Assembly: GCA_044892505.1 (NCBI GenBank)
Contig: CM097883.1
Span: 191,952,001-192,016,000, forward strand
From: Schmidtea nova
Taxonomy: Eukaryota
Length of the DNA stretch: 64,000 nt
Reading direction: 5' to 3'
Positions 16,201 through 36,246 of the stretch are shown one piece after another (positions within the stretch are counted from its first letter, which is position 1; each line of letters starts with the position of its first letter). The notes under the pieces are model-generated. The model did not search any database. It was not told the DNA's origin and worked only from the letters and a program-made list of their open reading frames with translations. The translations under genes were made by a program, and so were the position numbers.

Positions 16201-17032
16201 GATTTTTGATCGTTTCTATGTCGACCTCGTGATAATCCCCTTGTGCATATCTGTGCACTTTCTCTGTAGTCGCTCCTAGTATCTCCAATGAGTTTTTATT
16301 CTCCTTGAATTCCGATAATCTTTCTTGTGCTTTTGCTACGATTGCGTCTAGTCTCTCTTGATAGTCAGCTTTTGCATTGAACAACACTGCTTTGCTTCTT
16401 ATTCGTGTTTGCATCTGTTTCATCCGTTGGTCTTGATACACTGCTTGTCTGAAGAATTGTCCATATTTCAATGCTTCTATCAGCTCTTTATATCGCTTGC
16501 TTATTTCTTTGTGCTGCTTTTGGATGTCGTAGAAATGTTTGAAGCTCATATCCGGATTCCATTGCTTATCACACCATTTCTTGATTAATCCGAATAATTC
16601 TTTCTTTCGGTCATCCAACTTGTATTCTCTTGGGTTCTCGCTAACCCGTAACGTATCTCTCGCTATTAACACTGCAAGTGTTTTTGGATCGTATGTTACC
16701 TCTAGTAGATGTTTCAGTAACGCATTTTCTCCCCTTATGAACACTTCATTACAATCTATGACCCACGAATCTCCTTCTGGTCGTTTCCACTTTAGCAGTA
16801 TCCTCCAGGTTTTACTGTTCTTTACTCCGATTGCTTGTTTCATGATCGATCCTCTGGTCAGTTCATCGATTTCCCACGTGGTATTTTCCGTAATATACTT
16901 CAGTATTCGGTGATTCGCTCTGTCAATTGCATGATTCAAGAACGTTCGTCCTTCTTTATCTTTTGCCATCCAATTCGATCTGGTGTTTCCGAATAGCTTG
17001 ATTATTTCATCGTTTCTTCCATGAATGGTCAT
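13274..17032 (-). CDS. Polyprotein part 3: ankyrin repeats, hydrophobic segments, four Cys-containing FN3-like modules, C-terminal TM
   Basis: ANK motifs (GRTFLNHAI, GRLPIHWAL, GDTIMIIAA). Repeats CW...C...Y(E/I)(I/V)C...C. TM IMGLISMGVFIACIPLITIMIVCW. In frame with pol across TGA 17033-17035. Confidence 0.85.
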   Translation of the reverse strand: MTIHGRNDEIIKLFGNTRSNWMAKDKEGRTFLNHAIDRANHRILKYITENTTWEIDELTRGSIMKQAIGVKNSKTWRILLKWKRPEGDSWVIDCNEVFIRGENALLKHLLEVTYDPKTLAVLIARDTLRVSENPREYKLDDRKKELFGLIKKWCDKQWNPDMSFKHFYDIQKQHKEISKRYKELIEALKYGQFFRQAVYQDQRMKQMQTRIRSKAVLFNAKADYQERLDAIVAKAQERLSEFKENKNSLEILGATTEKVHRYAQGDYHEVDIETIKNQMPVAFLLSKDGRLPIHWALRRKKENEVLEITKAMVKCEADMNTVDDNGDTIMIIAARKKTKWKVLNELYEAGAKIEGKNGKNNSIIDIAIQWNNFEMIKFIKSIKRQEDIEYLANNVKNFSLTIMIHDIEKTRALLTWVNPVTKEPAFKINDHMEQNQNWCIRSALLRHKKPEIVEEFLKRRDLKFTNNPKEQERIGGWKDLFRKYVNEWANAKEAIKQSRLKDIEPSKDMEIREFESSTLAVQAYERLIEEINVEDDIFKGPGGGYRDFDDKSNNEENNEDNDNKRTEDNERERQEEPKPTRNDKKGEAEERENRGTKDESTNYGKRTGSLLLRPEMLCIAILITIIGQGEAKKQYVTLEIIRGNEVYERICWKENLKKNDTLKCILSDLKRDVIQIKGLEKEKSYIICAIKQRGEPKAPQVTACQLYKATEALKIQKWIEKRSEETTRRTEVESEKEKNQTEAEEGIRNRTEKERITKSPAGKLTFQPELICVALILILIKRIMEDIDISVMTLVNIQDQRTTNGRCWGRNNEVIGISETRESREAETNEEIEITEIETDKKCELCLMEKAANGNRPGTSECKVFQAKEIIEFPKRKKQDQEMIANEVVTVEIKNIGRRTIGMCWRKYIGIPTNTIIPQCRTRERGIPFQLNGFEVGQTYEICVIRRIREVIQRSLECKLYKTPEQINGTRTIEMGRSRQRKRKSRRITTTNSQGTQQTTTEKTTIENELESTTLIIWKIHKKVLEICWTLMPNSMGKSPRNCQKTSNDKGEIIEVEMRKLKTNAEYEVCAIEEVDAQGNPQERCETYYTPIKRRIKKLEFRELSQKREQNEKEEKIPNQQERWEPEKVIEEVRQRQQQYEQWEAEWKGQYGVMINQSEAPKMSIGKTIMGLISMGVFIACIPLITIMIVCWRYGMRNKTIAVKWPEVKVTNYNIKLPKAVREELKRRSKHEEMWVQIEDEELYEGKPVVIV

Positions 17033-20000
17033 TCACATGAGTGGAGTGATTCCTTCCCAATTCACTTTGTCAATTTCCCCTCCACCTTCGAGTATCATCT
17101 CTACGATCTCTTTCACCTTCTCGTTTCCCCCGTGCTTGATTGCATTGTGCAACGCGGTGTTACCCTCTTTATCCTGTAGATTCAATGTTTGAGGGATTTC
17201 CTCTAGCAGCGTTCTTGTTATTGGATGTGCTGTTCTATCCTTCGCATACTCCATTATATTCTTTCGAACTTCCGTCAGTATATTGAAATCGAACCACCAT
17301 TTCCATTCTGGTATAATTTCTCTGGTCCTCCTGACCAGTTCTTTGATGTCTATTATCTCCCTTCGGTTGTCTTCCAGATTTGTTTGCGGCTTTTGTTGTA
17401 CTCGTAACATATTAATTCTCGCCGTCTGTGATCTTGTCATCACCCGTTTCTCTGGTGATAGAGTTGCTGTCTTTGGTATTTTCCTGCATCGACATGCATT
17501 CACGTATATTGGTCTTACCAATGGATTGTTCACCAATCGTACTCGCACATTATTTTCATTTACTGTTGTTATTTCGTATGGCCCTTTGCCTGGTCGTTGG
17601 AGTTTCTTGACCGTACCGGGTATTATCTCTGGTGTCTCGACTATCACCCAATCTCCAACTTTTAAATCATGTGCTTTCACATTCTTTTTCTGATCATGCA
17701 GATCTTTGTAACTCTCTTGATAGAACTTGATGTTTAGTTCCGCCGTTTTCCAGATTTCTTGCATTCTTTCTTTGAACTTTGTAACGTAATCGTCAACCTC
17801 CATGTACTGTGATAATGGTGGTTGGTATTCCAAATCGATCGGTAAGTTGCAATCTCTTCCGTACATTAGTTGGAATGGACTTAGCTTTGTTGCCGCATGT
17901 ATTGACATTCTGTATGCCATTAAACACAAGTTGATATATTCGTCCCAGTCGGTTTGATGTTTACTGACGTAATTCGACAACATGCGTATCAATGTTCCAT
18001 TGAACCTTTCTGTTTGACCGTTCGTTTGTGGATGGTATGGGGATGTTCGTAATTTCGCAATTCGGAAGTAATTCGTGACTTCGTCTAATATTTCACTCAT
18101 GAAGTTCGTTCCTTGGTCCGTTAGGATTTTCTTGGGTGTTCCGTATCTGCAGCATATCTCTTCTACCAATATTCTCGCGACTGTTTTTGCTTTTTGATCT
18201 GGTATTGCGAATGCTTCTGGGAACTTTGTTAGATAGTCCGTAACTACTAAGATATACTGATTCCCCTTTGAGCTTTCCGGCAATGGTCCAACTACGTCCA
18301 TTGCTATCGTTGCCATCGGTTCTGCGGGTATTGGCATTGGTTTTAGTGGTGTTTTCCACTTCGTTCCGACGTTCTTTCTTGTCGCACAGGTTAGGCAGTT
18401 CTTTATCCATTCTTTCACATCATCTTCCATGGTTGGCCAAAAATACTTTTGTCTCAGTCTCCCGATTGTCTTTTTCGTTGACATATGTCCACCTAATTTT
18501 CCGTCATGATATTGAGTCACGATTTCCTTTCGTCTATTCGCAGGTAAGCACATCAATCTCCGTTCTCCATCTTGTATCAATAACCATCCTTTTTCCATCA
18601 CATATCTATGTTGATATTTCTGCATATGTTCGCGCAACGTTTGGTTCTTGTCGAATATTTCTATTTCCCTTTCTTCCAAATACTTGCTGATCATTCCCAA
18701 CTCCTCGTCTTCGAGTTGATCTTTCCTTAGTTCGCTAAAATCCAAATCCTCCGCTATTAATGCACATATTTTCAGAGCGTTTAGGTTCACCAATTCGGGA
18801 AATGTAAACCTTGACATGCAATCCGCGTTTGCGTTTGCTTTTCCTGCTTTAAACTTTATGAATGGCGAGTATTCCTGCAACTGCATCGCCCAACGCATCA
18901 ATTTACTTGATGATTCTTTGTGTTGACCTAACCATACCAATGGTTGATGATCTGTCGTGATATATATTTCATGACCCCACAATAGGTACTTGAAATGCTT
19001 GATTGCTAATATTATTGCATAGGCTTCTCTTTCCGTGACTGAGTAATTCCTTTCATGCTTCCTGAACGTTCGACTGTAATATCCGATTACTCTTTCCTTG
19101 CCTTCTTCGTCAAATTGGCCTAGTACTGCTCCTGCTGCATATCCACTTGCATCTGTTGCCAACAGAAATGGCTTCTTAAAATCTGGATGGACCAGTATTG
19201 GTGCTGTAATCAGCTTATCTCGTAATGTTTCAAATGCTGCTTGCTGTTCTGCTCCCCATACAAACGACACATCTTGTCTTACCAATTCTTGCATTGGTTT
19301 TGATATTCCTGCATAGTCTTTGATAAACTTTCGATAATATCCACACAATCCCAAAAATTCTTGTATTTGAGTCACTGTCTTTGGTGGTGGACATTCTTTG
19401 ACCTTTTCGATATTCCTTGGATCTGGTTCTTTTCCTTTTGCTGATACGATGTGACCTAAGAATGTCACTTTCTCTTTTGCCCAATCGCACTTTGACGGCT
19501 TCAGTTTCAGTTTCCACTGTCTCAATTTCACGAACACATTTCTGATGTCTTGTAAGTGATCTTCAAATGTTGCGGAGTAGATCAATAGATCGTCGATATA
19601 CACCATGCATTGTTTTATGCCATGTGTCACGAAATTCATGCATCTCTGGAATGATGCTGGCGCGTTTGTTAACCCAAACGGCATTTTCTTGAATTGGTAC
19701 AGATCTCGTCCGATTGTAAATGCTGTCTTCTCTTTATCCTCGTCTTTCATTTTGATCTGCCAATATCCGCTTTTTAAATCCAGTGACGTGAAATAAGCTG
19801 CTCCTTGTAACGTCAATAACATTTCATTTATGTCTGGCAGTGGGTACGTATCTCTTTTCGTAACTGCGTTCAATCGTCTGTAATCGATACAGAATCTCTG
19901 AGTTCCATCCTTCTTTTTCACCATCACCACTGGGAATTGCCAGGGTGAGCAACTAGGTTCGATGACCTCTGCATCTAACATCTTTTGTACCTCTTCTTCT

Positions 20001-21034
20001 GCCACTGCTTTTTGAGCTTCTGCCAGTTTATATGGTCTTAATGCTATTGGCGTTTCGTCCGTCAACGGTATCGTGTGTAAGGTTACGTCACATGTTCCTA
20101 AATCCAGATCTGATGCTGCGAATATATCTTTATATTCCATCAACAGTTTCTGTAACTGTTCTTTTTGTCGTTCGTCTAACAACACACTGTCGATTTTCCA
20201 TGGTAATTCGTCTTTGCTTTTCTCGTTCTTGTCTGGTATTTCGATTTCGGACATGGGTGTCAATTTACCCAATCTCTCATTCTCGTATATTATCTTGTCC
20301 TCTTCGTCAAAGTTTACCAGATTAATCGGTATTTCTCCTTCTTGGTTTATCGTGACCAATTCTCTTGCCATTGGTAATTCTTTCTTTGCTTCGAACTTCT
20401 TACTTGGTTCGAATACCATATCTCCCTTTATTGTTGAATCGATCTTGACATAACACATCATTTCGTGTCTCGCTGGCACTACTATTTGTTCTGCACTTGC
20501 CACTTTAACTTTCATTCTGCAGATTTTTCCTGTTCTGTCTTTTAGCTTCATTGCTCCTAGATCAATTACGATTTCCTTGAACAGGTCTGGCATCAGGTCA
20601 GTTCCAATAATACATGGTACACTCAGCGATGGTATTACAGCGATGTACGTGTTGATTTCTGCACCTCGATGCTTAATTTTTACAAACCATCTTCCGGCTA
20701 CTTCTACTGTCTCTTGACTGCATGCGATTACATGTACATTCGTCTTCTCAATTTCTCCTTGGTTTTTCTCTGGTATATAGTTGATGTCGATCGCCGAAAT
20801 ATTCGCGCCTGTATCGATCATAGCTTCGATTTCTCTTCCGTTTATTTCTACGGTTGTTGTTAAGATCGGTCCCATATTTGTGGACATAACTGCTATCGTG
20901 TGCGTGTCTTCCAACGGGTCTACACTTCTGCATCGTTTTACTTTGCATCCTTCTGGAATTATCGGGTATATGCTTGTCATCGGCATCATCTGCATCATAT
21001 TCGGCTTCGCTTTGTATATCGGTTCGTTATACAT
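17033..21034 (-). CDS. pol: Pol: aspartic protease, RT, RNase H, integrase (HHCC, DDE, GPY), start of ankyrin repeats
   Basis: MIDTGAN (PR), VYIDDLL (RT), ATDASGYAAGAVL (RH), H..GGH..CLTC, MDVVGP, TDQGTNF, GQTERFN (IN), GKGPY, EGNTALHNAI (ANK). Confidence 0.98.
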   Translation of the reverse strand: MYNEPIYKAKPNMMQMMPMTSIYPIIPEGCKVKRCRSVDPLEDTHTIAVMSTNMGPILTTTVEINGREIEAMIDTGANISAIDINYIPEKNQGEIEKTNVHVIACSQETVEVAGRWFVKIKHRGAEINTYIAVIPSLSVPCIIGTDLMPDLFKEIVIDLGAMKLKDRTGKICRMKVKVASAEQIVVPARHEMMCYVKIDSTIKGDMVFEPSKKFEAKKELPMARELVTINQEGEIPINLVNFDEEDKIIYENERLGKLTPMSEIEIPDKNEKSKDELPWKIDSVLLDERQKEQLQKLLMEYKDIFAASDLDLGTCDVTLHTIPLTDETPIALRPYKLAEAQKAVAEEEVQKMLDAEVIEPSCSPWQFPVVMVKKKDGTQRFCIDYRRLNAVTKRDTYPLPDINEMLLTLQGAAYFTSLDLKSGYWQIKMKDEDKEKTAFTIGRDLYQFKKMPFGLTNAPASFQRCMNFVTHGIKQCMVYIDDLLIYSATFEDHLQDIRNVFVKLRQWKLKLKPSKCDWAKEKVTFLGHIVSAKGKEPDPRNIEKVKECPPPKTVTQIQEFLGLCGYYRKFIKDYAGISKPMQELVRQDVSFVWGAEQQAAFETLRDKLITAPILVHPDFKKPFLLATDASGYAAGAVLGQFDEEGKERVIGYYSRTFRKHERNYSVTEREAYAIILAIKHFKYLLWGHEIYITTDHQPLVWLGQHKESSSKLMRWAMQLQEYSPFIKFKAGKANANADCMSRFTFPELVNLNALKICALIAEDLDFSELRKDQLEDEELGMISKYLEEREIEIFDKNQTLREHMQKYQHRYVMEKGWLLIQDGERRLMCLPANRRKEIVTQYHDGKLGGHMSTKKTIGRLRQKYFWPTMEDDVKEWIKNCLTCATRKNVGTKWKTPLKPMPIPAEPMATIAMDVVGPLPESSKGNQYILVVTDYLTKFPEAFAIPDQKAKTVARILVEEICCRYGTPKKILTDQGTNFMSEILDEVTNYFRIAKLRTSPYHPQTNGQTERFNGTLIRMLSNYVSKHQTDWDEYINLCLMAYRMSIHAATKLSPFQLMYGRDCNLPIDLEYQPPLSQYMEVDDYVTKFKERMQEIWKTAELNIKFYQESYKDLHDQKKNVKAHDLKVGDWVIVETPEIIPGTVKKLQRPGKGPYEITTVNENNVRVRLVNNPLVRPIYVNACRCRKIPKTATLSPEKRVMTRSQTARINMLRVQQKPQTNLEDNRREIIDIKELVRRTREIIPEWKWWFDFNILTEVRKNIMEYAKDRTAHPITRTLLEEIPQTLNLQDKEGNTALHNAIKHGGNEKVKEIVEMILEGGGEIDKVNWEGITPLM

Positions 21035-21055
21035 TGATTGAGGTGGAGCGCTGTA

Positions 21056-24000
21056 TCACCAATTCTCAACTGCACTCTTTTCGGTATACTGTGGGATCTG
21101 GTTTATATTCGCTTGTCCTCCTTGATCGTCATCGTCATCATCATTGCTTGAGTCGTCTTGTGTTCGATATCCCCTCACTCTTTCCCATAATCCTTTCCTT
21201 TCTTTCTTTAGTTGTCGTCTTGCTTGCTCGTCTTGCATTATCTTTTTGAATTTCCTTCCGACATCTTCATTTGTTCCTTTCATTTTCGCAAGTATCTTCA
21301 ACAATCTCTTTATTCGATGTATGTCTTTTGAATGTCCGTGCAACACCATTGTTTTCGCAAGGAATGGTAAAAACCCTACTACCATTTTCCAATTCATTTT
21401 CTTTTCTCTCTTGTAGATATCGAAGCACGCTAACATTTGCGTTATTATTACTCTGACGATTTGTATTATCAATATAACCCCCAGTATTCCAGCCATCATT
21501 TGTCCAAATATCAGGAATCTTCCCCACATTGCCTTCATCATGTTTTCTGTGGCTTTCTTGAAATGTGCCGGTGACAACAACAGTTCGTAATTCGGTCCTT
21601 CTCTGTAATTCGTTCCTCCCGTTATCGTTACGATGTTTGACAGTAATGCTTCTCTTCTTGCCGGGAATAATATATTCTGCCTTGCTGCTTCTAAGTCCTT
21701 TGGACTATAGATTCCGTTGTTTGAGACATCTACGTCGCTGAACTGTCTATCCTTTGACAACTGCATTAGTTCGAATTCTCTTGGTGCTAATACTTCGGTT
21801 CTTCCTGGGAACATAACCCATTTGCCATCTGGCTTCTGATAAAGCGGTCCGTACGCGTTACTACAGTTGAATGGATTTGGTTCAAATCCTGGTGGATTGA
21901 TGATTCTCGTCACCGGTTGAACATATCGTACTTTTCCTTTATAATCGATTTCTAATTCATTTGTACATTGTCCAGGTTTCAACTGCGTTGTTGCTGCTAG
22001 CGATGCGTGTGTCTTTTCGCAAATATATACATACATTGCCTCTCCAACCACTCTTCCGAAATGTCCTTCTCTCAGTGGTAATAATGGCATCGCGCTATCT
22101 GGATTCGTAATCGCTTCGGCCAACTTTGTCTTTAATATTTCCCGATTCAGTATACAATCGTTATTTATCAGATCATAGTACACTTTTTGCAATGAGGCTT
22201 GTCCTCTATGGAATAAGAAATCCATTTTATTATTCACATACAAGTGTAGCTTGATATCCATTGTGTCGATCTTGGGTTTCGCATTCGGCACTTCTTGTTT
22301 CGACACGTATATTCCTGGATAATTTGTTTCGTATACTGTTGTACTGCACTTAAGGGTTGCTTTCCCTTTTATGAATCTCATTCCCACATCCTGATTTGTG
22401 GTTATCAACACTGTTGGTGTGGCTCTCATCTCTATTCGTTTTTCTCTATGATCTGGTCTCAATTGTCTTTTGTTCTCTAAAGCTTCTTTGAGATGTTTTG
22501 CTCTAGCTTTGTCATCATCGTCCTCTTCCTGGAACGTTTTTCCTTGGATTTCGTCGAACTTTGCTCCTTGTAGCAGTTGTAATTGACATTCGTTCACTTT
22601 CGGTTTGTATACCAATGTTGACATTCCCGTTTGACACATACTCCTGTCGATTTTACACATGGATAACGTTTTCATTTCTCCGGTTGTCGGTTCGAAGAAT
22701 GCTTCGTAGCTTTTCAGTTCGACTATGTACGTATCCATCACCACTAAGTTGGTTGCAGGTGCTCCGAATATTGGGTAGGTTTCCCCTTGACAATACCCTT
22801 CTCCTCCCGTAATTCGTCCTGCTACATAATACGTCTGCTGTAACATCATTCCTGGTTTTCCTTTTATCTTGATTTTATCTCTCGTTGTTACTTCTCCATG
22901 TTTAAATAATGCTTCGCAGTCTTCCCCTTGCAATACGATTGGTTCTCTTTCTGTTCCTGGCATGACAATTGCTGAATAATGTCCTCTCCCACAATAGAAT
23001 GCGAATCTCGTCTTCTGTACCTTGCATTCATTCACCATTGTCTTTATTAGTTCTGCCTCTTGATACACGTGATACCATTGTTCTTTTTTAATCTCTTTCA
23101 ATTCTACTGGAGTTGCGTCTTTGCATTGCTCCGTACCTCTCAATGAGTACTTTTCTCCCAATTTCATTTGATCACAATCAAATACTTCGAACGTTGTTAC
23201 ACCTTCTGTGCTTAACAACCATACTAGCATCATCATGATTATCGAGTTTAGATTCAACGTCGACCTTCCGTTTCCTTGCATCGTTTGTCTATTCTCCATT
23301 TCTCTCAATACTCCTTCGAGTTTCTTTCTCATCACGTTAGAACCTTCTTTTGTCTGATTCTCTTTTATGAACTTTTCCCATCCTCCTTTTCTGAGGATAT
23401 ATGGTTCAATTTCTTTCTCGATAATCATCGCCGTATTCTTGATATGTCTTCCCATCGGACTTGACTTCGGACTTCCTCGGCTTAGCGTTAGCAAATTGTA
23501 TATCGTATACGAGATTGCTACTAGATATTTGCTGTCCGTTTCTGCTCCGTTCAGTAGCCTTTTTATCAACATCGTGGTTCCTTGCCAATCTAGATGATTC
23601 GATTTTGTTTTTGCCTTTATCAATTCCGGCATAATCGGTGCTATTGCATTGTGTAGCATTTTTGCCTTTGTACTGGGTTCGTTTATCCGCCACAAATTCT
23701 TTAATTCTGGGTCAATTATCGCTAACACATCCATTATCGTTTTGGTGAGCCATTCTTCTCCTTGACAAACTTGATTCTTCTCTTTTCCTCTGATTTCTGC
23801 GATTTTGTCTAGTTTCTTCAAGCAAATCTCCCATTGCTCTTGTCTCCTTTCTTCTCTTGTCTTTGGAATTGTTGTTGCTGGATCTATCTTTGGTCTCCCT
23901 CTTGGTCGTTTTTCCATTCCAGTTCCGGTTTCTATAAATCTCGCTGCTCTTCCGGTTTCTTCTGTAACATCTCTTCCTTCGTTCGCTCGCTGTTCTAACC

Positions 24001-27000
24001 ATCTTTCCATTTCTTGAGTAAACTGTGGTTGTTCTTGTTCGTCTTCCGAATCGTTTACCATTTCTATGACTACCTCCTGTTCCACTCCTTGATCGTCGAT
24101 TTCTGCTGGTGACGTTATTGGCATCTCTATTATTCTGTCGAAAATATTTGCCGTTGGTTTTTGAGTTAACTTCGTTAGTTCTTCTATCGCCTCATCACTA
24201 TCTGTTAGTATCTCATCGACGTCATACGCTTCTGGCGGTGTTCTCTCTCTCGTTTTTATTGGTGTTGTCCTTGCTTGTCCTGAACTTGTTCCTGGGGTCA
24301 TTGTTGACTTCATCGGACTTGGTGTACTCATGCTTCCTTTCGCTTTCTTTTCCTCTTTAAACTTCAGTGGTTGACCCACTATTTGTGCCACTGTTAGCGT
24401 ATTCATTAGATCCAATTGCACTGGTGTCAGCCAGATTTCCAAATTATTATCCAACGATCGTCCTTGATGTTGCAGGTGGAATGGTAGTTCATACATCAGT
24501 TTCTCTTTAACACTCTTCACTTTTTCGGTTAGCATCACCCAAAATTCTTCTTTTCTCTGATTCGGATACATTATCCTCAAATGTATTTTCTGTGGCGTTT
24601 CCTCCGCGAATTCTCGGTTTCTCCACTTTTTTATTACATCGTCTAGTTGCTCTGGACACCACTCGTTAACTCTCTTGTATTCTGCTATCGCTTTAGCTAC
24701 TTTTCTCAAGTTCGTTATGTCTTCTCCATTTGAGATTATGAATTGTGCTAAGCCTTTTATTGTTTGTCTTTTTCCCCGAGTATTTCCTCTCAACAGCTCG
24801 ATCAATTCACTTGTTTTCTGTTTCTCCAATTCTGCCCATATTACTGCAGTTTCTGGTCCGTCTAAGTCCGTTGGTAGTAACCTCCTTGTTACCATACATA
24901 TCCGTTTCGTATTCAGTTCATATCTGTCTTCTTCTTCCGGATCTTCTTCATATACGCCTCTTTTCACTTTCCAACATTTCTCTTTGTTATCCCATTGCTT
25001 CTCTACTGGCGTCAATCGTCGTCTGTTAAGATCCAATTCTCCTAATATTGTCTCCCATTCTGGCTTCATCTGCCAGTTCCGATAGATTTCTACTATCTGC
25101 CTCAGCTTACGCATAACGTCCTCTTGTCGTTTCTTTTTCCTTTCCTCATCTCTTGGTGTTGCTCTTTGCACATCATCCATTCTGATGACATGTATTGTCT
25201 GATAATTATCCCATATGCCGATTTTGTACGCTCGTCTCTCATCACGTTCGTTTAGTAGGTGTTCTTTGTATTTTATCGCAATGTCATCCTCGAATTCGTC
25301 TTCTCGTTCTCGTTGTAATATCGTCTCATTGATGACCTCTACTATTTCTCCCACTTTACTATCTGGTATTACTTCAATTTGTCTTGTCTCTTCGTTCGGT
25401 AATCTCACAGTAATCATCAGATCTGATACCTCTCCTCTTTTAAACATTTCTTTTCCCATCTTTGCAATTAGCTTGTCCGTCTTGAAGTTTGAATGCCTCG
25501 TTTGACTTGTGTCTCGTATGTTCTCGATACACTGTTTCAAATTCTCATACTCGCTTTTTGTCAATTCCTTTCGATGTTTCTTGATTTGTTGAATGATCTG
25601 TTCTATCATCGTATTCAAATTCTCTGCCAAGATTCTTTCCTTTGCCTCCATCAACTGAGGTTTTATTCTCATCTCATAACACGTATTCGCTTCTCTGACG
25701 ATTCCTTGTAGGTTCTCTTCCTTTTTGGTGTTGCATATAGCTAGCGTTGTTATTTCTCCTGGCCATATGCCTGTGTCTATCATATGCGTTCCTTTTCTCA
25801 CCAATCCGTTTTCCGAATATATGAATTTGTCTTTGTACGAGCTTCCCAATCTGTCCTCAACCCATCTGTAAATTCCATCCGTCATTGGGTTCCTTATCCA
25901 GATTCTTGGTGAACACTCGTTTATCCATATTTGTATTACGTATTCGTTCAGTGGTTCTTTCAATAACTTCTCTATGAATTCCTGTATTACCCTCACTTCT
26001 CTTTCTTGTAACCACTCTTTATACTTCATCTGCCATACTGCTCGTATAAACTTTCTATATCGTTTCCCGTCGATAAACTCCTCGTTATGGATTACTTCCA
26101 ACGCGTTATCCATCAGCTTCTGAATTTCCTCTTCCTTTACTGACATCGTTTCTATCGTCTCGACTACTTCCATCTTTTTATCCTCGTTTTCCGGTTCCTT
26201 TAGCATGTCTCCTGCCAGACTGCTAACTTCGCTGTCGTCTTCTTCATCTGACAACTCTTGTCTTGGGTGTCTCAGCATCCCAATATGCGCGGTTGGTCTC
26301 GCTTCGTTTTTGCTAACTTCTTGTATTAGTTCATTCTCGTTTCCCGTTATTTCAGCTTTTCCCATTCTCTTTTCCAACTCGTCTATTTCTTCCAGCCGTC
26401 TTCGTCTTATTTTTCCTTTAAATATTCGACTGATCCGAGTTTGATGTTTCACTGGTGGGGGAATTTTCTCCGGTTCCGCCTCTCTAATGATCATCACGTT
26501 TATTTTCGTCTCCGTTACTCCCATATTTTCCCATATATCAGTCATCTTCAACTTTACTTCTGGCAAATCCTCTGTTTGTAGGAATGCTTCTCTGGGCAGT
26601 TTCGTTACTCCCGGAATCATCTCATTCACTTTATTGAACAATCTTCCCACTTCTTCTTTTACATCATATTTGAATCGCCACACGTGATCATTCGGCATGA
26701 TCACCAACATTCCTCTTTGTTTGATTCTCACTTCCTCTTCTTGATTCGTTTCTTTTTCTACTTCTTTTTCCGTTTCTGTTTCTTTTTCTACTTCTTCATC
26801 CTTTTGATTCTGCTCCGCGACTTCTACTTCCTGATTCACTTCTTCTTGTTTCTGCCCTTCGTTTCTTTTCTCTTTAACTTCTGACTCGTCTGACTCATCC
26901 TGCTGCTTCTCTTCCATCATTGCTCGCATCATGTTGATCCTTGGATTTCCCTTTTTTAACTGTTGTAATCGTTGTTGCCTGACTTGTTCTTCTTCTCGTC

Positions 27001-28168
27001 GTACTCTAGCCCATTCTTGATTATGTTTCTGTTGGCTTTCTCTATTCTCTCTTTCGGCCTCAGCTTCTATTAACTGGATCATGTTTATCTTTGGTTGAGC
27101 AGCTTGCTGGCTTCCTTTTGCCATGCTTTCGATTATCTCATGTAATCTGGATACCTCCTGTCTCAACTTAGCTTCTTTCATACTGGCTTCATTTGCACTG
27201 CTGTTTGGGTTATTCCGTTGTTGACCTTGATTCCCATAGCTTGGTCGATTCCCGTAATTCGGTCTATTTCCACTGTTTGACCAACTTCTCTGTTGATTAC
27301 AGTCTCTTGACATGTGTCCGGTTTTTCCACATGTGTAACACGTTTTCCCATAACATCGATTTTCTGAGTGACCTTTTTGTCCACACAGTTTGCAGGCTAC
27401 ATTCTGAAAACACTCTTGTTGCCAATGTCCGTTTTTCCCACACGTCTGACATTGCTTATTCTGCCTGTCATTGTAACTATTTCCTCCACTCGTGTTCACC
27501 GTGATATATCCGTTATTCTTCCTCGCTGGCGGTTCTTTGAATAGTCTCTGCGAATGGGGAATACTCTGGTTCATATTTCTTTTCCCTTGTTCTTCATCTT
27601 CTGTCGTTTTTCCCATTACCGCCGTAATTCTCATGTCATTCATTGCCATATGCAATTCGAATAGGTTGGCTGCTTCCAACGCTTCATCGACTGTTTTACA
27701 TCCTTTGCATCCCACTTGTGCTCTGATGTCAGGTCTCCTGAGACCTCGTACGAATAACGCTGTCATTAATTCCTCATCTACTGGACTTCCTCTGTTAAAT
27801 GCCAGTTTCACCAACTTTCTTAATTCGCTTGCGTACACCGCATTTGACTCGTTTCTCCTTTGTTTTCTTGCTGAAAACTCATCGAATGCTTCATTCAGCA
27901 CTTTATTTATCCCAAACGTCTGTTGGAAGAACTCCTTGATTGCTTCCCACGTTCTGGGTGGACTACTTCCCGATCTCTTTTCAATATACAGATCCAATGC
28001 GCTATCTTTCAAGTATAGCGGGATTCGATTTGCCAACGTTTCTGCACTCCATCCGCATATATCCACGAATATGCCAAATTCCTTTAGAAACGTGTCCAAT
28101 CTACTGGCGTCTCCATTGAATGGTTCGCCCTTGAATTTTTCTCTCAGATCCTCTCTGTGATCGCTCAT
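21056..28168 (-). CDS. gag: Gag-cargo-Env polyprotein, 2370 aa: capsid, 3 CCHC knuckles, 2 Ubl-like domains, Bcl-2-like domain, chuvirus-type glycoprotein
   Basis: PFNGDASRLDTFL..WEAIKEFFQQTF capsid. CQTCGKNGHWQQEC, CKLCGQKGHSENRC, CYTCGKTGHMSRDC. EPYILRKGGWEKF (BH2-like). Cys-rich glycoprotein between a signal-like segment and a TM. Confidence 0.93.
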   Translation of the reverse strand: MSDHREDLREKFKGEPFNGDASRLDTFLKEFGIFVDICGWSAETLANRIPLYLKDSALDLYIEKRSGSSPPRTWEAIKEFFQQTFGINKVLNEAFDEFSARKQRRNESNAVYASELRKLVKLAFNRGSPVDEELMTALFVRGLRRPDIRAQVGCKGCKTVDEALEAANLFELHMAMNDMRITAVMGKTTEDEEQGKRNMNQSIPHSQRLFKEPPARKNNGYITVNTSGGNSYNDRQNKQCQTCGKNGHWQQECFQNVACKLCGQKGHSENRCYGKTCYTCGKTGHMSRDCNQQRSWSNSGNRPNYGNRPSYGNQGQQRNNPNSSANEASMKEAKLRQEVSRLHEIIESMAKGSQQAAQPKINMIQLIEAEAERENRESQQKHNQEWARVRREEEQVRQQRLQQLKKGNPRINMMRAMMEEKQQDESDESEVKEKRNEGQKQEEVNQEVEVAEQNQKDEEVEKETETEKEVEKETNQEEEVRIKQRGMLVIMPNDHVWRFKYDVKEEVGRLFNKVNEMIPGVTKLPREAFLQTEDLPEVKLKMTDIWENMGVTETKINVMIIREAEPEKIPPPVKHQTRISRIFKGKIRRRRLEEIDELEKRMGKAEITGNENELIQEVSKNEARPTAHIGMLRHPRQELSDEEDDSEVSSLAGDMLKEPENEDKKMEVVETIETMSVKEEEIQKLMDNALEVIHNEEFIDGKRYRKFIRAVWQMKYKEWLQEREVRVIQEFIEKLLKEPLNEYVIQIWINECSPRIWIRNPMTDGIYRWVEDRLGSSYKDKFIYSENGLVRKGTHMIDTGIWPGEITTLAICNTKKEENLQGIVREANTCYEMRIKPQLMEAKERILAENLNTMIEQIIQQIKKHRKELTKSEYENLKQCIENIRDTSQTRHSNFKTDKLIAKMGKEMFKRGEVSDLMITVRLPNEETRQIEVIPDSKVGEIVEVINETILQREREDEFEDDIAIKYKEHLLNERDERRAYKIGIWDNYQTIHVIRMDDVQRATPRDEERKKKRQEDVMRKLRQIVEIYRNWQMKPEWETILGELDLNRRRLTPVEKQWDNKEKCWKVKRGVYEEDPEEEDRYELNTKRICMVTRRLLPTDLDGPETAVIWAELEKQKTSELIELLRGNTRGKRQTIKGLAQFIISNGEDITNLRKVAKAIAEYKRVNEWCPEQLDDVIKKWRNREFAEETPQKIHLRIMYPNQRKEEFWVMLTEKVKSVKEKLMYELPFHLQHQGRSLDNNLEIWLTPVQLDLMNTLTVAQIVGQPLKFKEEKKAKGSMSTPSPMKSTMTPGTSSGQARTTPIKTRERTPPEAYDVDEILTDSDEAIEELTKLTQKPTANIFDRIIEMPITSPAEIDDQGVEQEVVIEMVNDSEDEQEQPQFTQEMERWLEQRANEGRDVTEETGRAARFIETGTGMEKRPRGRPKIDPATTIPKTREERRQEQWEICLKKLDKIAEIRGKEKNQVCQGEEWLTKTIMDVLAIIDPELKNLWRINEPSTKAKMLHNAIAPIMPELIKAKTKSNHLDWQGTTMLIKRLLNGAETDSKYLVAISYTIYNLLTLSRGSPKSSPMGRHIKNTAMIIEKEIEPYILRKGGWEKFIKENQTKEGSNVMRKKLEGVLREMENRQTMQGNGRSTLNLNSIIMMMLVWLLSTEGVTTFEVFDCDQMKLGEKYSLRGTEQCKDATPVELKEIKKEQWYHVYQEAELIKTMVNECKVQKTRFAFYCGRGHYSAIVMPGTEREPIVLQGEDCEALFKHGEVTTRDKIKIKGKPGMMLQQTYYVAGRITGGEGYCQGETYPIFGAPATNLVVMDTYIVELKSYEAFFEPTTGEMKTLSMCKIDRSMCQTGMSTLVYKPKVNECQLQLLQGAKFDEIQGKTFQEEDDDDKARAKHLKEALENKRQLRPDHREKRIEMRATPTVLITTNQDVGMRFIKGKATLKCSTTVYETNYPGIYVSKQEVPNAKPKIDTMDIKLHLYVNNKMDFLFHRGQASLQKVYYDLINNDCILNREILKTKLAEAITNPDSAMPLLPLREGHFGRVVGEAMYVYICEKTHASLAATTQLKPGQCTNELEIDYKGKVRYVQPVTRIINPPGFEPNPFNCSNAYGPLYQKPDGKWVMFPGRTEVLAPREFELMQLSKDRQFSDVDVSNNGIYSPKDLEAARQNILFPARREALLSNIVTITGGTNYREGPNYELLLSPAHFKKATENMMKAMWGRFLIFGQMMAGILGVILIIQIVRVIITQMLACFDIYKREKKMNWKMVVGFLPFLAKTMVLHGHSKDIHRIKRLLKILAKMKGTNEDVGRKFKKIMQDEQARRQLKKERKGLWERVRGYRTQDDSSNDDDDDDQGGQANINQIPQYTEKSAVENW
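21330..23250 (-). other. env: Envelope domain, chuvirus G-like (class III fusogen) within the Gag polyprotein
   Basis: Motif series FDC..C..CKV.....YCG..H..C..AG...G.C.G, YVNNKMDF, DCIL, GEAMYVYIC, GIYS.KDL..ILFP, WGRFLIFG..AG, matching from memory the chuvirus-like glycoproteins. Confidence 0.8.
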
Positions 28169-29043
28169 CCCGATTCCACTATCTTGGAATACTGTACTAG
28201 TTTTCTTTGCTTCTAGTTCACCACTTGTTTCTGAATTCGACTCTTCTTTTTCACTACTCTCTGTTTCGTTATCTCTTGATTCGCTTCTTGTTCTGTTTTC
28301 CCTGACTAGTTCACTGTCTATCGTCTCTACTTCGTTTTGAACTTCTAGATCTTCTGGGGTTTCTTCTTGGTTCTCTTTATTACTCGAATTATCGCTGATC
28401 TCTACTTGTTTGTTCTTTTGTTGCTTAGGCTTGTTACCTGTTCTTGTTCTTTTTGCTGCTTTTCTTTCGGCTTCCGTTAAGATTGGTATTATACCTGATC
28501 TTGTTTCTCGTCCCTCAATTTTGTCTATTCCTCAATTTCTTATATTCTCAACTGATTTTCTACTCCGCTTTTGCTTTGCTTCTTCTTTGATTTGTTTCCT
28601 TTGATTGCTCTGACTGCTAGATTGCCTTGAATTGTTTGATTGATTTGTTTCCTTAAAACAAATAATCACTTACACGATACGTCCCCGTTATCGTGTTTCT
28701 CGTCCCTCTCACGGGTGTAGTCATAATTCATGAAGATCCCCATTTTTCCCATTTCCCTTGATTTTAAGTCTATTTAAATTATCTATGCAGTCGTATCAAT
28801 TATCTATTCTTTATCAAATACACCAATTACTTTTCCCCAGTTTCCCAATCACTTTGTCGCTCAGCGCTCTTATTATTCCCTTTACTTTTCTCAGGCTTCT
28901 CTGGCTCTGAGTTCAAATTTCCCCTTATCTGTCGACTACCCTGTTTCTCGACTATTCGCTTTATTTCCTATTCACACTACGTTTACTACTTCATTTCAAT
29001 TCTCATCTCTACTCACCTTTAATTCAACTGACATCTCTCGTTG

Positions 29044-29510
29044 GCCTGCTGGGTTTTCCAGTCAGCGCTTTTAATCTCACCTTTTATCTCGAACTCTGTT
29101 TCTCTCAACTTCACTCATTATCTCATTAGCCTGCTGGGTTTTCCAGTCAGCGCTTTTAATCTCACCTTTTACTTCTGCTTCATTATTCTCGACCTCAATT
29201 GTCGTTTCATTAGCCTGCTGGGTTTTTCCAGTCAGCGCTCTTATTATCCACCCTTTATCTCTTCACTGTCGACTTTTACCTGCTCTTTATTCCGATGATC
29301 ATCACTTTTGACCTGCTGGGTCTTCCAGACAGCGTCCTCAATTTCACCACTTTATTATTACTCACTTTTGTTCTCTCGATCTTTCCTGATCGTTATCGTT
29401 GACCTGCTGGGTTTTCCAGCTAGCGTCTTTACCACTTTACCTGTCTTACCAAACCGGTTTCATTTTATTCTCATCGAATCTCATGGTCTGCTGGGTTTTC
29501 CAGTCAGCAC
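29044..29510. repeat. Six copies of a ~21-nt hairpin CTGCTGGGTTTTCCAGTCAGC spaced 84-98 bp apart
   Basis: Core starts at 29046, 29131, 29215, 29313, 29404, 29488. The spacers are pyrimidine-rich and mostly divergent. Confidence 0.9.
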
Positions 29511-29831
29511 CTTTACTTACTCACTTTACTTTACTACTCCTTTGTATGCATACTTTCACCTCATTAGGCCACATAATCAGCTTTACTCGCATTTATCAAT
29601 ACCTAGGTGCGCACCTTCAACTCTCTCGTTATTAATTCGGTTTCTTTCAACCCTTATTCCTCATTATTCGCTATTCATTTTCACTATTCATCATTTATCC
29701 TCATTATCACTTATTCATTTCCATTATCGCTTATTGATCTTCACTATCCGGATAGTTTTATACTTTATTTAGTCCTCATCTGCCTCACTTCGTCGTCTTT
29801 CTCGTGGGCTTTTACTCGATATTTTATTTCG

Positions 29832-30450: not shown

Positions 30451-31152
30451 ACGAGAACTCGAAATATCATCTCTCAGTGGTTGCATGTGTTGCTTCGGGA
30501 TGTTCCTCCCAGTGGTCACTTATGCTTCTTCGGAGAATCTATTGTCGCGTTTCGTTAAGTTCTATCTTTCAAGAACTATGGGCAAATCCTTTCTCTTTAG
30601 GACCCCTTTTATCATTTCCTTTCTTTCAAGGAATTCGTTAAATCCTCGAGTTTTTTCCCTTTCACTCGGTTCATCTATTACACCCCTTTATTCTGTTATC
30701 TATTCATCGACTTCTCTACTTGATTTTACTTTATGCGAGCTGATTACGTGCCTTTCATCATATACCTCATTTCTCTACTCATCTTACTCATTTCATTGCT
30801 TTATCTCTCTCTTTACTGATCAGTTTCAACATCCTCTTTTTATAGTTTTTTCTGCGCGCGCCTAAACCTCGTTGAGTTGTCCCTACCTTTCACCCCAACC
30901 AAAATATATAAAAAGATCGCATTGGTCCACTGATGCACGATGTGGTGATCAATCACATCACAAGAGCTTTCCAATATCCGCGATTGGCCCCTTTCTACAC
31001 ATTTCGGGTAAGTTGATCAGTTGGTTCCCCCCAATGGGTGCTTATCGGACTACTCGTGAGTAGCTCATAATTACTTAGGTCATTTTTACTAAATCATCTT
31101 TAAACCCTCATAATTTCAATAACAACTGCACTTGTTCAAAACTTTATTTCTA

Positions 31153-31611
31153 TTACAAGTACACTGTTATTTTCTCGGATACGGGAAGGTTGCACATAGG
31201 ACATCGTTCATTTATTTTACATTCATTACAGAATCGGAAATGCCCACACGGCAACAACATTATCTGTATTTTGTTCATTTCACAGATATAACACGTCAGA
31301 TATTGTCTCGTATGTTCTGTTGTTATTCTTATCCACTCATCGTGTTTTGTTGTTAACTGTTGCTCTAGCCTGTGGCACTCGATATTCATCTCAGGGTTGT
31401 TTAATCTTTCTCTATACCATTGATATCGTGTTGCTGTATCCACTGTGTTCTTATTCTCACTTAAGCTCATCATCCTTTCGGCTCTTTCTGTGTTGTTTGT
31501 CGGTTCGTGATATTCTCCTACCTCGAGTCGTTTTAACTTTCTCGTTATTGTCTCCACTGTCTCGTTGTTTGTTTCGAAAAACGTTTGCATTTCTTTTATT
31601 TTGTTCTCCAT
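31153..31611 (-). CDS. 152-aa protein with C-terminal IAP/Mdm2-type C3HC4 RING (putative E3 ligase)
   Basis: CYIC.....IMLLPCGHFRFCNEC...RCPMC...SEKITVYL at the extreme C-terminus. CAG 3 nt before the ATG. No BIR domain seen. Confidence 0.85.
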   Translation of the reverse strand: MENKIKEMQTFFETNNETVETITRKLKRLEVGEYHEPTNNTERAERMMSLSENKNTVDTATRYQWYRERLNNPEMNIECHRLEQQLTTKHDEWIRITTEHTRQYLTCYICEMNKIQIMLLPCGHFRFCNECKINERCPMCNLPVSEKITVYL

Positions 31612-32132: not shown

Positions 32133-32150
32133 ATCCCGGCTGAGCCCCCA
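32133..32150 (-). other. Primer-binding site, tRNA-Pro type
   Basis: Minus strand TGGGGGCTCAGCCGGGAT, 16/18 identical to the canonical Pro PBS TGGGGGCTCGTCCGGGAT, 6 nt from the 5' LTR. Confidence 0.9.
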
Positions 32151-32541
32151 AATTTATGCTGGTGTGTTGGTTAGATTGACAACTGAGATCATTATGATTT
32201 TATATGTTAGGGTGATCTCGCCAACATAAAAACATTCCCCCGCTGACACCCATGATGTATCCCTAACTACTCATCATGTTGGTACTGTGTCAACGTTGTG
32301 AAATGACAAGGCAGGTGAGCAACCTTACGGCTACTATTCCCTTGTTTATTCACGGGTCCACCACTACCGATAGAAGGTGTTTGTGGATTTCTTTCGGTCC
32401 CACTTATGCTCTTGTCTATTGTCCTAGGGTAATTTAGTCTTAGCGCATCTGCTGTTCTTCATGAATCCGGGTTTTAGTTATATTCAATTCTCAGACATTC
32501 CACAAACAAACAAGACAAGTCAACTCATTCATTTTATACAT

Positions 32542-33192
32542 TTATTTATAGTTTAACAATACAGAGGGTCTAATTACATTTAGTAGTTCTCGCTCGGATA
32601 GACCACTGAGCAAGTCTACTTCTATTCCCAGGTGATCCGCATATGCGCGTCTCTCCCTACGTTTTTTCGCTCCCAAGCGATTCCTTCGTTTGGTCCTCTG
32701 CGACCCTCGTGGTATGGTTGTGGTCATCTCGGTTGCCATGGTTACGGTTATCTCTTTGTCGGTTTGCGTACTCGTCGTTGCTGATGTCGAAGTTAACCAT
32801 TTGTTGAAGGTACTCGTCCTAATCACTGGACGCAATTGCTCAACGATGAAATCTTGGGTCGACACCTTTAAATAATTGGCCAACTCTAACTTCAGGGCTG
32901 CGACCTCCCTCGCTTGTTCATCGATCGTTCGCTCCACTCTGTATCGGGCCTGTAAGATGGCTTTAACCCTCTCAGGATTAAACCACGTTGCCTTAATCCG
33001 CTGGTGCTCCTCGTTCAGTTGTCTCAAGCGACTCTCGAGGACACGGGATCGTGCTCTATGTTCGCGTGCCTCTTGCTTGTAATTTCGAGTGGGATTTTCG
33101 TCCATATCTGAGTAATGTATCATTAACCAGGGTATGTATGCATTGTTTGGTTTCTCAGTCCCTATTTTATTGTTAAACAACTGCACCCTCAT
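32542..33192 (-). CDS. LTR ORF B, 5' LTR copy
   Basis: 216 aa, 2 aa differences from the 3' LTR copy. Confidence 0.55.
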   Translation of the reverse strand: MRVQLFNNKIGTEKPNNAYIPWLMIHYSDMDENPTRNYKQEAREHRARSRVLESRLRQLNEEHQRIKATWFNPERVKAILQARYRVERTIDEQAREVAALKLELANYLKVSTQDFIVEQLRPVIRTSTFNKWLTSTSATTSTQTDKEITVTMATEMTTTIPRGSQRTKRRNRLGAKKRRERRAYADHLGIEVDLLSGLSERELLNVIRPSVLLNYK

Positions 33193-33300
33193 CCTTACTC
33201 ATTCCACATACATCCAAAACCAAAACAAAACCCTTTTAAATGGATACATATATTTTTAATTTACAACAGATGTTCGTACATTGGGGTGTCGTCCTCGTGA

Positions 33301-33936
33301 TCAATTGTATGGTCGTAACTCTTGATCGGCCGGGTTCTCGTCTCGGCGAATCCCTGTTTCATGGTATATTTCGGGGGCCGGATTCCAACTCAGTTTGTTT
33401 TGATAAATGAACACCTCCCAGAGGCGAAGGTCTTTGGGCTCGGGGTGTTGATCCACGGAAACACTGCCTGGGGCGTCCGGGTAAACGAAGACTTCCACAG
33501 TGTCACCACACCGAGGCCTGTCTAGCAGCAAATACCCGAGTTGACCGAATGCCTGCCCGGTCATCATTCCGGTGCTTAGTACCCAGCGGGGTTGTTGTGT
33601 TTCATCTACAAATTGATAGAACCATCTTTCGTATCCATCTTTGGTGGGGTTCGGGGAGGGCGTCCAATCGACATCGCCTTCCCACCTCAGCTGTAGTTGG
33701 AATGCACAGGCGGGAATACTTGCCGCTGTGCTCATATGGGTCCTTGTCCATCGACGCAGGTGTCTACGTGCGGAGTTGAAAATTTGTCGTGGGGCCTCCT
33801 TCTCTCCTTGGATCTCAGTAGGTAATTTTTGTGTGATGACGGAGCGGATGCGCCGTTTCCTCCGTAGAATGTACTCCTCTAATTTGACGGTTAGGGGTCC
33901 TACCGGCTCCTTCATGAGATATTCTGTTTTCATCAT
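33301..33936 (-). CDS. LTR ORF A, 5' LTR copy
   Basis: 211 aa, 2 aa differences from the 3' LTR copy. Confidence 0.55.
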   Translation of the reverse strand: MMKTEYLMKEPVGPLTVKLEEYILRRKRRIRSVITQKLPTEIQGEKEAPRQIFNSARRHLRRWTRTHMSTAASIPACAFQLQLRWEGDVDWTPSPNPTKDGYERWFYQFVDETQQPRWVLSTGMMTGQAFGQLGYLLLDRPRCGDTVEVFVYPDAPGSVSVDQHPEPKDLRLWEVFIYQNKLSWNPAPEIYHETGIRRDENPADQELRPYN

Positions 33937-36246
33937 GTTGCTCTGAAATGGAATTTTAGGTTAACTGACAGACTCTATCATCGACCATCGATATTTATGT
34001 CGATCAACCTACTTGGTTTATCGTTCTATTAGCCGTAGGCCTTAGTAGCTCGCATATAATTTACTAGGCCGTTGGTCGCGATGTTCATGTAGGTGGTGAC
34101 TTTACCTGGTGAGTTGATTCACTCCGCAATTTCAGACGGTTTTAGCTACGCTAATTTTGGCTTGTTATTTACAATCAATTTATGTTACATTTAATCTTTC
34201 ACCGATCATTTTCATTCACTCAACACAGTTCATTTACAGATCATCATCAGCAACTATCAAGGTTCTCGTCACGGGGAAAATTTAGTCATCCCTTAGTCAA
34301 CTGCTTTGTTGAGGAACACACTAATTTTATCTACTATCGGGTCTGACTTTTCATGCCCTTAGTGGATTATATGTATATATCTGGCAGCTCATTCGATTCA
34401 CTACTGCCCCTTGGTGTTAATGTCTTTCGACCGCGATGTTACGTTTTGCCTATCTCGATTCTCATCGACTTTTGATGTACTAGCACTCCTTGAAGGTATA
34501 CCCCCTCATCAAGGTACCTCATGCATATATCTTCCCTTGCGAAATGAACTTTTACCTTGAGTTGATTTATGGTCATTAACTGTCACCCGATACCCCGTCA
34601 TCGTGATGTATAGCGTTTATACTAGGCCGTCGCTACCTTGATTTAGTTCATGATCGTTAGGTCTTACTCGATACCCTATGTGCATCCCCCTTTCCCCCCC
34701 CCCATCAAGTATTTAGTAAACTTATGGTCCCGCCGCATCAGCACCTCACAACCGATAAGGTGTGTTGCACTGAGAGGCCAAAGAATCCGTCAGGCTGTTA
34801 GGCCTCCGGAAAACCTTATGGATTTTAATATGATTATAAAATTATGAGGGTTTAAATAATTAACACTAAAACTCAACCATACTTGTATTTGGATTCCAAT
34901 CGGTTTTACAATGTCTTCCGTAAAAGTGACTGTTGCACTGATTTACCTTCAGTAAAAAATGACATTTTCAAATACTAATTTGACTTCAGTATTTATACTC
35001 AACCGGTGTTGTTGGTTAGCCAATCAGCATCGAGTATGTGTGTATGTTTGCTTCATTTTTTCATGTTGTCGGCTTTTTGCTGCCTAACTTAACTCACCGA
35101 TTTATTTGGTTAATCATGCGGTAAATTTATTTTTTGTATGATTTAATTTTTATTTGATTTTGTTTTAACTCTTCGGTGACATCCGCCCACGCGCTGTCAT
35201 ATTCCGATTTTATTTGCTTCGCATGAGTGAGTTATGAAGATTTTTGTTGTTTTTATTAATACTCTATTTCTTTTAGATGTTGCCGCCTATTTTATTACAC
35301 TTTGGTGTTGGTAATTTATTTTGTTGTTATTCTGTTGTAAATTTATTTTATTGATTGTATATTATTTTTAGATGCTGCTCGATTTGGCTGGCCCAACAAT
35401 GTTAACGTAATGTTTTTGGGATAATTTATATTCAATATTTACAATAAAGCTTTGATGTAAAATTTTCGTTTTGATTAAAGGATTCCTGATAAAAATCTGA
35501 CCGTAAAATAAATAAGTGCGCCCTCTGTTGGGAAAGCCGTATTGGTGGGCCTGTTTATAGCTTCACAGTAAGGTTAGAACAAACTAAAATTCATTGATAA
35601 TTAAATTTTGGTTAATGGGAAAATGAAAATTTAGGACATAAATGTAAAGTAAACATGAGGGAGTTAAGAAAGGTTCTCTATCTATATTTTGTGAACGAAT
35701 AAATGTAGGAAATTGAAAGCTAAGATATAATCATGCGCCAAGACCGTAGAGTAAGCAGATGCGTAAGTTCTTTTATCAGCAGCAGGAACCCAAAGGAAAA
35801 AATATAGTGAGAAGTGGTTTTGGTAGCGAAGCTCATCTGTTCACTAGATTCTCGCCACCGTGTACAGTATCAACATAGTTAATTAGGAAATAACTATGGA
35901 TTCACGAGTGAGGTCGTTTAATATTTATGATGGGCTATGGGTTGTATTAATACCTAGAGGCAAAAATCATTTTTATAACAACGCCCATATCATCCAAAAG
36001 TACAGTTGGGCAAAAACTAAGAGTTGTTTAAAAGAAGTGGTAACACAGCACGTAGAGAGCGCACAAGAAGTTTATTTAAAATTCATTGAGCCAAAACATC
36101 AAATTAAACATATGTTGAGGTTCCGAGAATCTCAACTTGATGTTTCTTATATAAATAGAAACAAGACTGGTTCTTTTCTAAACTTTTATTTAAATTATAA
36201 TAATTTACAAATTTGATAAAAATTAAACAATTATTTCACAGATAAG

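Follow-up and report, generated by a model that had tools for sequence, protein, structure and literature searches.

Why should a retroelement carry the same small inverted repeat six times upstream of gag, and which molecule, if any, would read it? This question is raised by a locus of Schmidtea nova lying in the window, the whole stretch of 64,000 nucleotides analyzed here. The cores of the repeats start at positions 29046, 29131, 29215, 29313, 29404 and 29488, with spacings of 85, 84, 98, 91 and 84 nt and no further core anywhere in the 64-kb window, and a covariance model of the hairpin has exactly six matches in these 64 kb, all on the minus strand. Both searches confirmed the number and spacing given in a preliminary description of this DNA. 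Genome-wide (1.25 Gb), the core 16-mer has 620 matches versus 0 for its reversed control, and 99 of the first 100 matches listed are clustered. Three of the units form an 85-nt tandem repeat (79%). The spacers, which had been called diverged, are indeed near shuffle level in identity (0.53-0.69 versus 0.55 ± 0.03 in shuffles; 0.75-0.96 for the hairpins), but their origin is to be corrected to tandem duplication and, as judged from these comparisons, they are decayed tandem duplicates.

The host of the array is an LTR element of 29.4 kb that reads on the minus strand, is bounded by a 4-bp target duplication and is composed of the following parts.

32157..35398, minus strand: 5' LTR, 3242 nt, 99.75% identical to the 3' LTR
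32133..32150, minus strand: primer-binding-site-like 18-mer
31153..31611, minus strand: accessory ORF with a terminal RING-like cysteine cluster (labeled by eye)
21056..28531, minus strand: gag (zinc knuckle) and chuvirus-like fusion glycoprotein frame, first ATG at 28168
17033..21055, minus strand: pol (PR, RT, RNase H, integrase) in the frame of gag, with an in-frame stop at its end in this copy
13274..17032, minus strand: ankyrin-repeat part, continuing the gag-pol frame
11296..12726, minus strand: TRAF-like RING/zinc finger and MATH frames, split by a stop in this copy
6008..9247, minus strand: 3' LTR, 99.75% identical to the 5' LTR

The element is young, and its 18-mer is presumably of the tRNA-Pro type. 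In the polyprotein, PF00098 and PF24664 precede PR-RT-RH-IN in a single frame. A gag search of the genome retrieved 150 places, 139 belonging to the same family (family A) and 11 to a sister family at 67-68%. In this copy, the gag/glycoprotein frame also ends with an in-frame stop, making two in the polyprotein; since the frame exceeds 5,000 aa in more than 20 of the 139 family copies, these stops are not a family trait, and programmed read-through was dropped as an explanation because the frame is open in many copies. A 396-aa frame with no significant family match follows the TRAF genes (10046-11236, minus strand). The array had been placed about 0.9 kb upstream of gag, which is correct for the first ATG at 28168, while the open frame of gag already begins at 28531. 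This segment (28168-28531, minus strand) is open for about 120 codons before the first ATG in family A, in the sister families S1 and S2 and in family D, and an ATT codon in strong context stands right after the stop upstream of the gag frame; a Gag with a non-AUG N-terminal extension is possible.

By anatomy, the host is a Burro-type element, as far as the accessible part of the description of planarian Burro elements allows the comparison (PMC6431247). With Burro/GYPSM1 it shares a length of about 30 kb, long LTRs and accessory ORFs, an env that follows gag and precedes pol within a single frame of about 5,000 aa, and ankyrin and MATH-TRAF modules; the Burro polyprotein is described there as single, with about 4,900-5,100 aa, and the elements as having an internal part of up to 25 kb and a total length above 30 kb. 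It differs in that its TRAF ORF comes after the polyprotein and that BIR and BCL2-like modules gave no match at E≤0.01 in a Pfam search, the one search applied to them. The part of the description available mentions tandem repeats and no hairpin array (PMC6431247), and the likeness to Burro1-4 is one of anatomy. Among the proteins retrieved by a search with pol, most were generic gypsy relatives and none was a named Burro.

Other elements are present in the window. Another gypsy element, a small one whose terminal repeats measure 239 nt and are 99% identical, occupies 38422-43349 (plus strand). A reverse transcriptase frame of the non-LTR type lies at 53631-61105 (plus strand); its N-terminal part matches Ulp1/C48 protease, and two unassigned frames stand before it. 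At 49876-49948 there is an LTR-like piece of a group of smaller env-bearing LTR elements (3,400-aa frame; L061-L084), whose LTRs contain a 17-nt unit repeated three to eight times. A pattern for apical-core arrays with other flanks had 26 matches in the genome; ten loci were fetched, the seven of them that were inspected proved to be LTR repeats of smaller elements and not hairpins, and this class was set aside.

As the host element reads on the minus strand, its RNA exposes an A-rich loop and a bulged A instead of the U-rich loop and bulged T proposed initially. On this sense RNA, the unit measures 27 nt and contains 10 bp, interrupted by two bulges of one purine each and capped by an A-rich loop, in the order 3-bp basal stem, bulged G, 3 bp, bulged A, 4 bp and loop of 5-6 nt, with a folding energy of about -11 kcal/mol. 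The stem-loop first described, 7 bp with one bulge, is real but incomplete, since it misses the basal stem, which is the bearer of most covariation. The six units are listed with their upper-stem pair probabilities in a 2.5-kb context fold.

29485..29511, minus strand: hairpin unit 1, 5'-most on the RNA, basal GGU/ACC, pair probability 0.97
29401..29427, minus strand: hairpin unit 2, basal GAC/GUC, pair probability 1.0
29310..29336, minus strand: hairpin unit 3, basal GAC/GUC, loop AAGAC, pair probability 0.44
29212..29239, minus strand: hairpin unit 4, basal AGC/GCU, 6-nt loop, pair probability 1.0
29128..29154, minus strand: hairpin unit 5, basal AGC/GCU, pair probability 0.98
29043..29069, minus strand: hairpin unit 6, outermost pair an A-C mismatch in this subfamily, pair probability 0.98

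The claims that loops vary and that the bulge may shift without loss of pairing were borne out: in unit 2, the bulged A has moved by one position with every pair preserved. Unit 3 has, in this copy, a U in place of the bulged A. The array region (511 nt) is more stable than all 100 shuffles, with z-scores of -3.2 on the minus and -3.5 on the plus strand, and this equal stability of both strands counts against an RNA-sense reading.

Selection on the pairing was assessed in family A, where 90 loci, after removal of eight duplicates and one locus without a unit, gave 81 loci with 454 units. Six units are found in 57 loci, five in 14, four in five, three in two, seven in two and two in one, counts from which badly decayed units may have escaped. 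The pair types were tabulated for 397 units, with the 57 bulge-shifted units excluded. The outermost basal pair is G-C in 210, A-U in 142 and A-C in 36 units, the last being the single widely shared pairing break; the second is G-C in 301 and A-U in 87, and the third C-G in 296, U-A in 77 and U-G in 20. One upper pair is C-G in 382 units and U-A in ten. Of the 454 units, 443 retain the bulged G, and 389 of the 397 tabulated units retain the bulged A; the bulge-shifted form is kept in more than 50 units, and four loop types are common. A covariation test was run on 15 hand-picked types, bulge-shifted and 6-nt-loop units excluded: 90.7% of the cells are paired, a value reached by 0 of 500 shuffles (17-47% in slid controls), and five of the ten pairs are altered on both sides, a count reached by 3 of 500 shuffles. 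Random breaks of pairing in other copies, which the preliminary description named as contrary evidence, are thus not what the copies show. RNAalifold recovered the 7-bp core only, as the basal stem is specific to family A. Lineage-fixed wobble pairs, in the hairpin and the neighboring structures together, are mostly G-U on the sense strand (six events versus one by our own tally). The covariation, as reconstructed here, is about five events among related sequences and not a probability; moreover, all compensatory changes are transitions, and template switching could equally yield them. With these qualifications, the hairpin is very probably an RNA structure under selection, and the earlier suggestion of a multivalent RNA platform for protein binding is supported, pairing being kept and 80 of the 81 copies carrying three to seven units.

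The relatives of family A place this array in an evolutionary context, and comparison across them, as had been recommended, found paired changes both in the 454 family-A units and in three sister families. At the syntenic spot, the single hairpin of S1 shares the bulged A but differs in its loop and has C-G in place of a U-A pair. A search with the stem pattern gave 258 matches versus one for the control, and all 30 loci fetched, from two families, have one hairpin upstream of gag. Because this pattern itself selects for pairing, sampling was repeated through an unrelated 20-nt anchor.

28767..28786, minus strand: AT-rich 20-nt block used as anchor, invariant in six families

The block, which we take to resemble a GATA/TATA-type DNA site, has 591 matches in the genome at one mismatch and tandem partial copies upstream; from these 591, 30 loci were sampled, then 19 chosen for not matching the listed ones, with one refetch. 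The hairpin was present in 5/5 loci of S1, 9/9 of S2 (three with one broken pair) and once in L158. In S3, the covariance model matched in 11 of 15 loci, where the hairpin is often duplicated, broken or deleted and carries two G-U wobbles in its best form. The model had no match in S4 (three distinct loci), S5 (five) and family D (eight; gag identity 34%), nor in ten loci of the smaller env-bearing elements. As MAFFT misplaced the array in whole-leader alignments, these served for flanking blocks only. The single copy in two sister families marks the six-fold array as an expansion specific to this lineage, and the hairpin is not universal, being decayed in one family and absent from three. Absence of the array from relatives, the other contrary outcome named beforehand, is therefore seen in part: related families have a single hairpin, a decayed pair or none.

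Such a distribution invites the view that only one ancestral hairpin matters, or once did. Tandem duplication where reverse transcriptase pauses would then have produced the six-fold array as a tolerated by-product, and template switching would have made the paired changes. A single copy suffices in S1 and S2, the unit number ranges from two to seven within family A, and a different, weakly folding leader repeat has been amplified in each sister family: the leaders of L085, L105, L140 and L181 each have their own (about 30-45 nt, weak hairpins), at the place held in family A by a 19-nt minisatellite. We nevertheless consider a by-product quite unlikely, for unit-specific pair types keep every stem while the spacers have decayed to near-shuffle identity, and both bulges persist although arm-to-arm copying ought to erase them.

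Repeated short motifs may also act as DNA. The 5' UTR of gypsy contains 12 Su(Hw) sites and gtwin six short repeats (PMC3383448, accessible part), and the smaller env-bearing elements repeat the GGAAAACCC core three to eight times in their LTRs, upstream of a TATA-like box. The hairpin core presumably resembles kappaB/NFAT or Zic sites. A set of DNA sites for transcription factors or insulators, comparable to the Su(Hw) sites of the gypsy leader, is still the least probable of the readings considered here: the GGAAAACCC core, a nonamer, is lost in S1, S2 and S3 with the pairs retained, and changes in one arm are matched on the opposite arm across an asymmetric, bulged palindrome.

Further structures surround the array in the leader.

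30939..30959, minus strand: DIS-like hairpin, 6-bp stem and 9-nt loop with the self-complementary hexamer UGAUCA
30733..30752, minus strand: 5' arm of a predicted long-range helix
29833..30459, strand not assigned: 19-nt minisatellite with degenerate repeats, inside the span closed by the long-range helix
29567..29592, minus strand: 3' arm of the predicted long-range helix, adjoining the array on its 5' side in the RNA
28652..28669, minus strand: splice-acceptor-like site, a U-rich tract with terminal AG before gag

The DIS-like hairpin is present in seven families (A, S1-S5 and D), as found by a search that required the motif, and its loop hexamer is invariant in all of them, down to 34% gag identity. 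Its stem is 97.9% paired (1 of 500 shuffles) and two of six pairs covary (61 of 500 for the pair count). The long-range helix, of about 21-23 bp, covaries, being kept with differing sequences in A, S1, S2 and S4, and has G-U pairs on the sense strand, while its probability is 0.00 in the 2.5-kb fold; it loops out a family-specific repeat insert. The DIS-like hairpin is surrounded by a conserved non-coding block (30860-31080, minus strand) that contains CCAAT-like and TATA-like words and might act as an internal promoter. Three further small hairpins lie at 28672-28911 (minus strand), after the array and before the acceptor-like site; by eye, they have apparent counterparts with changed pairs in sister families.

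This setting recalls a retroviral packaging signal, and the hairpins could be a part of one bound by Gag, through its zinc knuckles or a basic N-terminal extension, the upstream palindromic hairpin dimerizing the genome. Their covariation fits this reading as it does the one we prefer, as do their position between the DIS-like hairpin and gag, upstream of the acceptor-like site, and their purine-rich unpaired context, which agrees with the packaging signals described in the part of PMC12789967 available. Against it, S4, S5 and D are multi-copy families which have the DIS-like hairpin without the array hairpin, and the copies of S3 are broken, although all need packaging. Nucleocapsid domains read unpaired G, and no G is conserved in the loop. 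We regard Gag binding as possible though doubtful, and only slightly less probable than the reading we prefer. The earlier idea of a packaging platform loses ground in one respect: an array that is not general is unlikely to serve all these elements as their core packaging signal, and the DIS-like hairpin appears to be the better candidate for a universal dimer signal.

The leader also bears on which RNAs would contain the array. Three ORFs lie between the LTR start and gag, with 41 ATGs in the final 2.7 kb, so that gag is likely translated from a spliced RNA; the array, about 390 nt upstream of the acceptor-like site, would then be retained in the unspliced genome RNA only. The acceptor-like site was found in 50/50 anchor loci, and is followed by 480-560 nt or more free of ATG in 6/6 loci from six families; the 400 nt preceding the anchor contain 5-11 ATGs. 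A search for spliced retrocopies gave three matches versus 46 for its control. A 777-nt skip over the array, observed in contigs of unrecorded type from four runs of one study, likely reflects sister families; these contigs carry no information about expression or splicing, and one of them has an end that we take to be transposase-adapter-like. In another planarian, Burro1 is transcribed and PIWI-controlled, splicing being unmentioned in the accessible part of that report (PMC8532177).

A candidate ligand is encoded in the LTR.

32542..33105, minus strand: ORF-R, LTR-encoded, candidate ligand

Both LTR ORFs (32542-33105 and 33301-33960) recur in the 3' LTR, and the second (33301-33960, minus strand) has homologs in sister families. 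ORF-R, an orphan protein of coiled-coil type, is predicted to form long helices, a disordered linker, a helix opening with an arginine-rich stretch and short hydrophobic helices (pTM 0.32); its C-terminal helices are hydrophobic by eye. No homolog was retrieved from a large protein database, the best Atlas score was 0.79, Pfam gave weak matches only, and the PDB matches were designed helical peptides along with weak capsid matches at E 6-8. Homologs are found in A, S1, S2, S4 and one of eight D loci, several of the D stretches being too short for the LTR. The arginine-rich motif is intact in A, S1 and S2, the families with sound hairpins. S3, whose hairpin is decayed, has only a C-terminal piece in one of two loci, and in S5, which lacks the hairpin, ORF-R was not found in 2/2 loci; for both families, a truncated LTR may conceal the gene. 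Co-occurrence with the hairpin is thus concordant in A, S1, S2 and S5, partial in S3 and discordant in S4 (two loci read) and one D copy, which have ORF-R without the hairpin; the S4 motif is the most diverged among the families. The arginine-rich stretch may also be a plain nuclear localization signal. In the sections of the sources at hand, Rev-like proteins are described as binding a structured cis element, multimerizing and exporting unspliced RNA (PMC3856414), and bulged hairpins as targets of arginine-rich motifs (PMC5113205). Stems and bulges that are conserved around a free loop fit this mode of recognition better than loop reading.

On these grounds, the reading preferred here is that the six hairpins form a multivalent response element for ORF-R. 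The bulged hairpins would fold in the RNA of the element and be bound, as repeated sites, by the LTR-encoded arginine-rich protein, which would read the stem and bulges and not the loop; its oligomerization on them would admit the unspliced genome RNA to nuclear export and to packaging. Gag would be made from spliced RNA, leaving the hairpins in unspliced RNA only, and one ancestral hairpin would have been multiplied by tandem duplication, the copies being retained for avidity. Taken as a whole, this sequence-derived mechanism is tentative and falls short of probable.

The ligand might also be of host origin, for instance an export factor, an RNA-localization adaptor or a splicing regulator limiting use of the acceptor. 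A host ligand would leave the mismatch between ORF-R and hairpin in no need of explanation, and the 5' arm of the hairpin resembles, as we take it, a branch-point motif with the A bulged out. Simple retroviruses recruit host export factors through cis elements, including direct repeats (PMC12789967, in the part accessible). However, an Rfam 15 covariance-model scan of 27500-36000 gave 0 matches at E≤1, and the bulge-shifted unit, kept in more than 50 units, is without a branch-point-like sequence, so that a host ligand appears unlikely. SECIS, IRE, MS2/PP7, boxB and Smaug sites were compared with the unit and rejected, their loop or quartet features being absent. Release of small RNAs, proposed at the outset as a further role of the array, is also unlikely and was put aside: the stems have 10 bp, versus about 30-35 bp in the small-RNA precursor clusters covered by the available part of PMC12553114.

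The proposed response element can be set beside known leader elements, as far as the accessible parts of the sources go. With the Rev/RRE system of HIV-1 (PMC3856414), it would share an element-encoded, arginine-rich and likely oligomeric protein and a structured cis element likely confined to unspliced RNA. It differs by separate small tandem hairpins in the leader in place of one large element in env, by a putative ligand, ORF-R, that is encoded in the LTR and has no sequence kinship to Rev, and by a gypsy-type retrotransposon as host. Retroviral packaging signals and DIS (PMC12789967) likewise have a chain of bulged stem-loops with unpaired purines before gag, a palindromic-loop hairpin and a long-range helix, whereas here an accessory ORF separates the leader structures from the primer site, at a distance of 1.2-3 kb, the centre of the palindrome is AU in contrast to the GC-centred ones of retroviruses, and the array hairpin is missing in several replicating sister families. 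The gypsy insulator and the ZAM and gtwin 5' UTR arrays (PMC3383448) also have, in an env-bearing gypsy leader, a short motif repeated six to 12 times; these are DNA sites conserved in sequence, whereas pairing is conserved here and the apical sequence is not. By analogy, the array seems to work like a retroviral leader cis element, membership in the RRE or the packaging-signal family being putative. A literature search returned no description of this hairpin or of a Rev-like protein in Burro; the original Burro description and Repbase may bear on this point.

For RNAs of retroelements of 25-30 kb, the sources consulted here describe the Burro proteins and give no cis signals for export, dimerization and packaging. 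The present analysis provides a map of such a leader, backed by covariation and comprising a hairpin array, a DIS-like hairpin, a long-range helix and an acceptor-like site, together with a named candidate ligand. If ORF-R is this ligand, the system would be a convergent, Rev-like one outside retroviruses, with a new peptide-hairpin pair. That Burro-type elements evolved their own Rev/RRE-like switch, in which spliced RNA makes Gag-Env-Pol and a dimerizing genome is exported unspliced, is distinctly doubtful at this stage; if true, a gypsy-type element would be regulated in the manner of a complex retrovirus.
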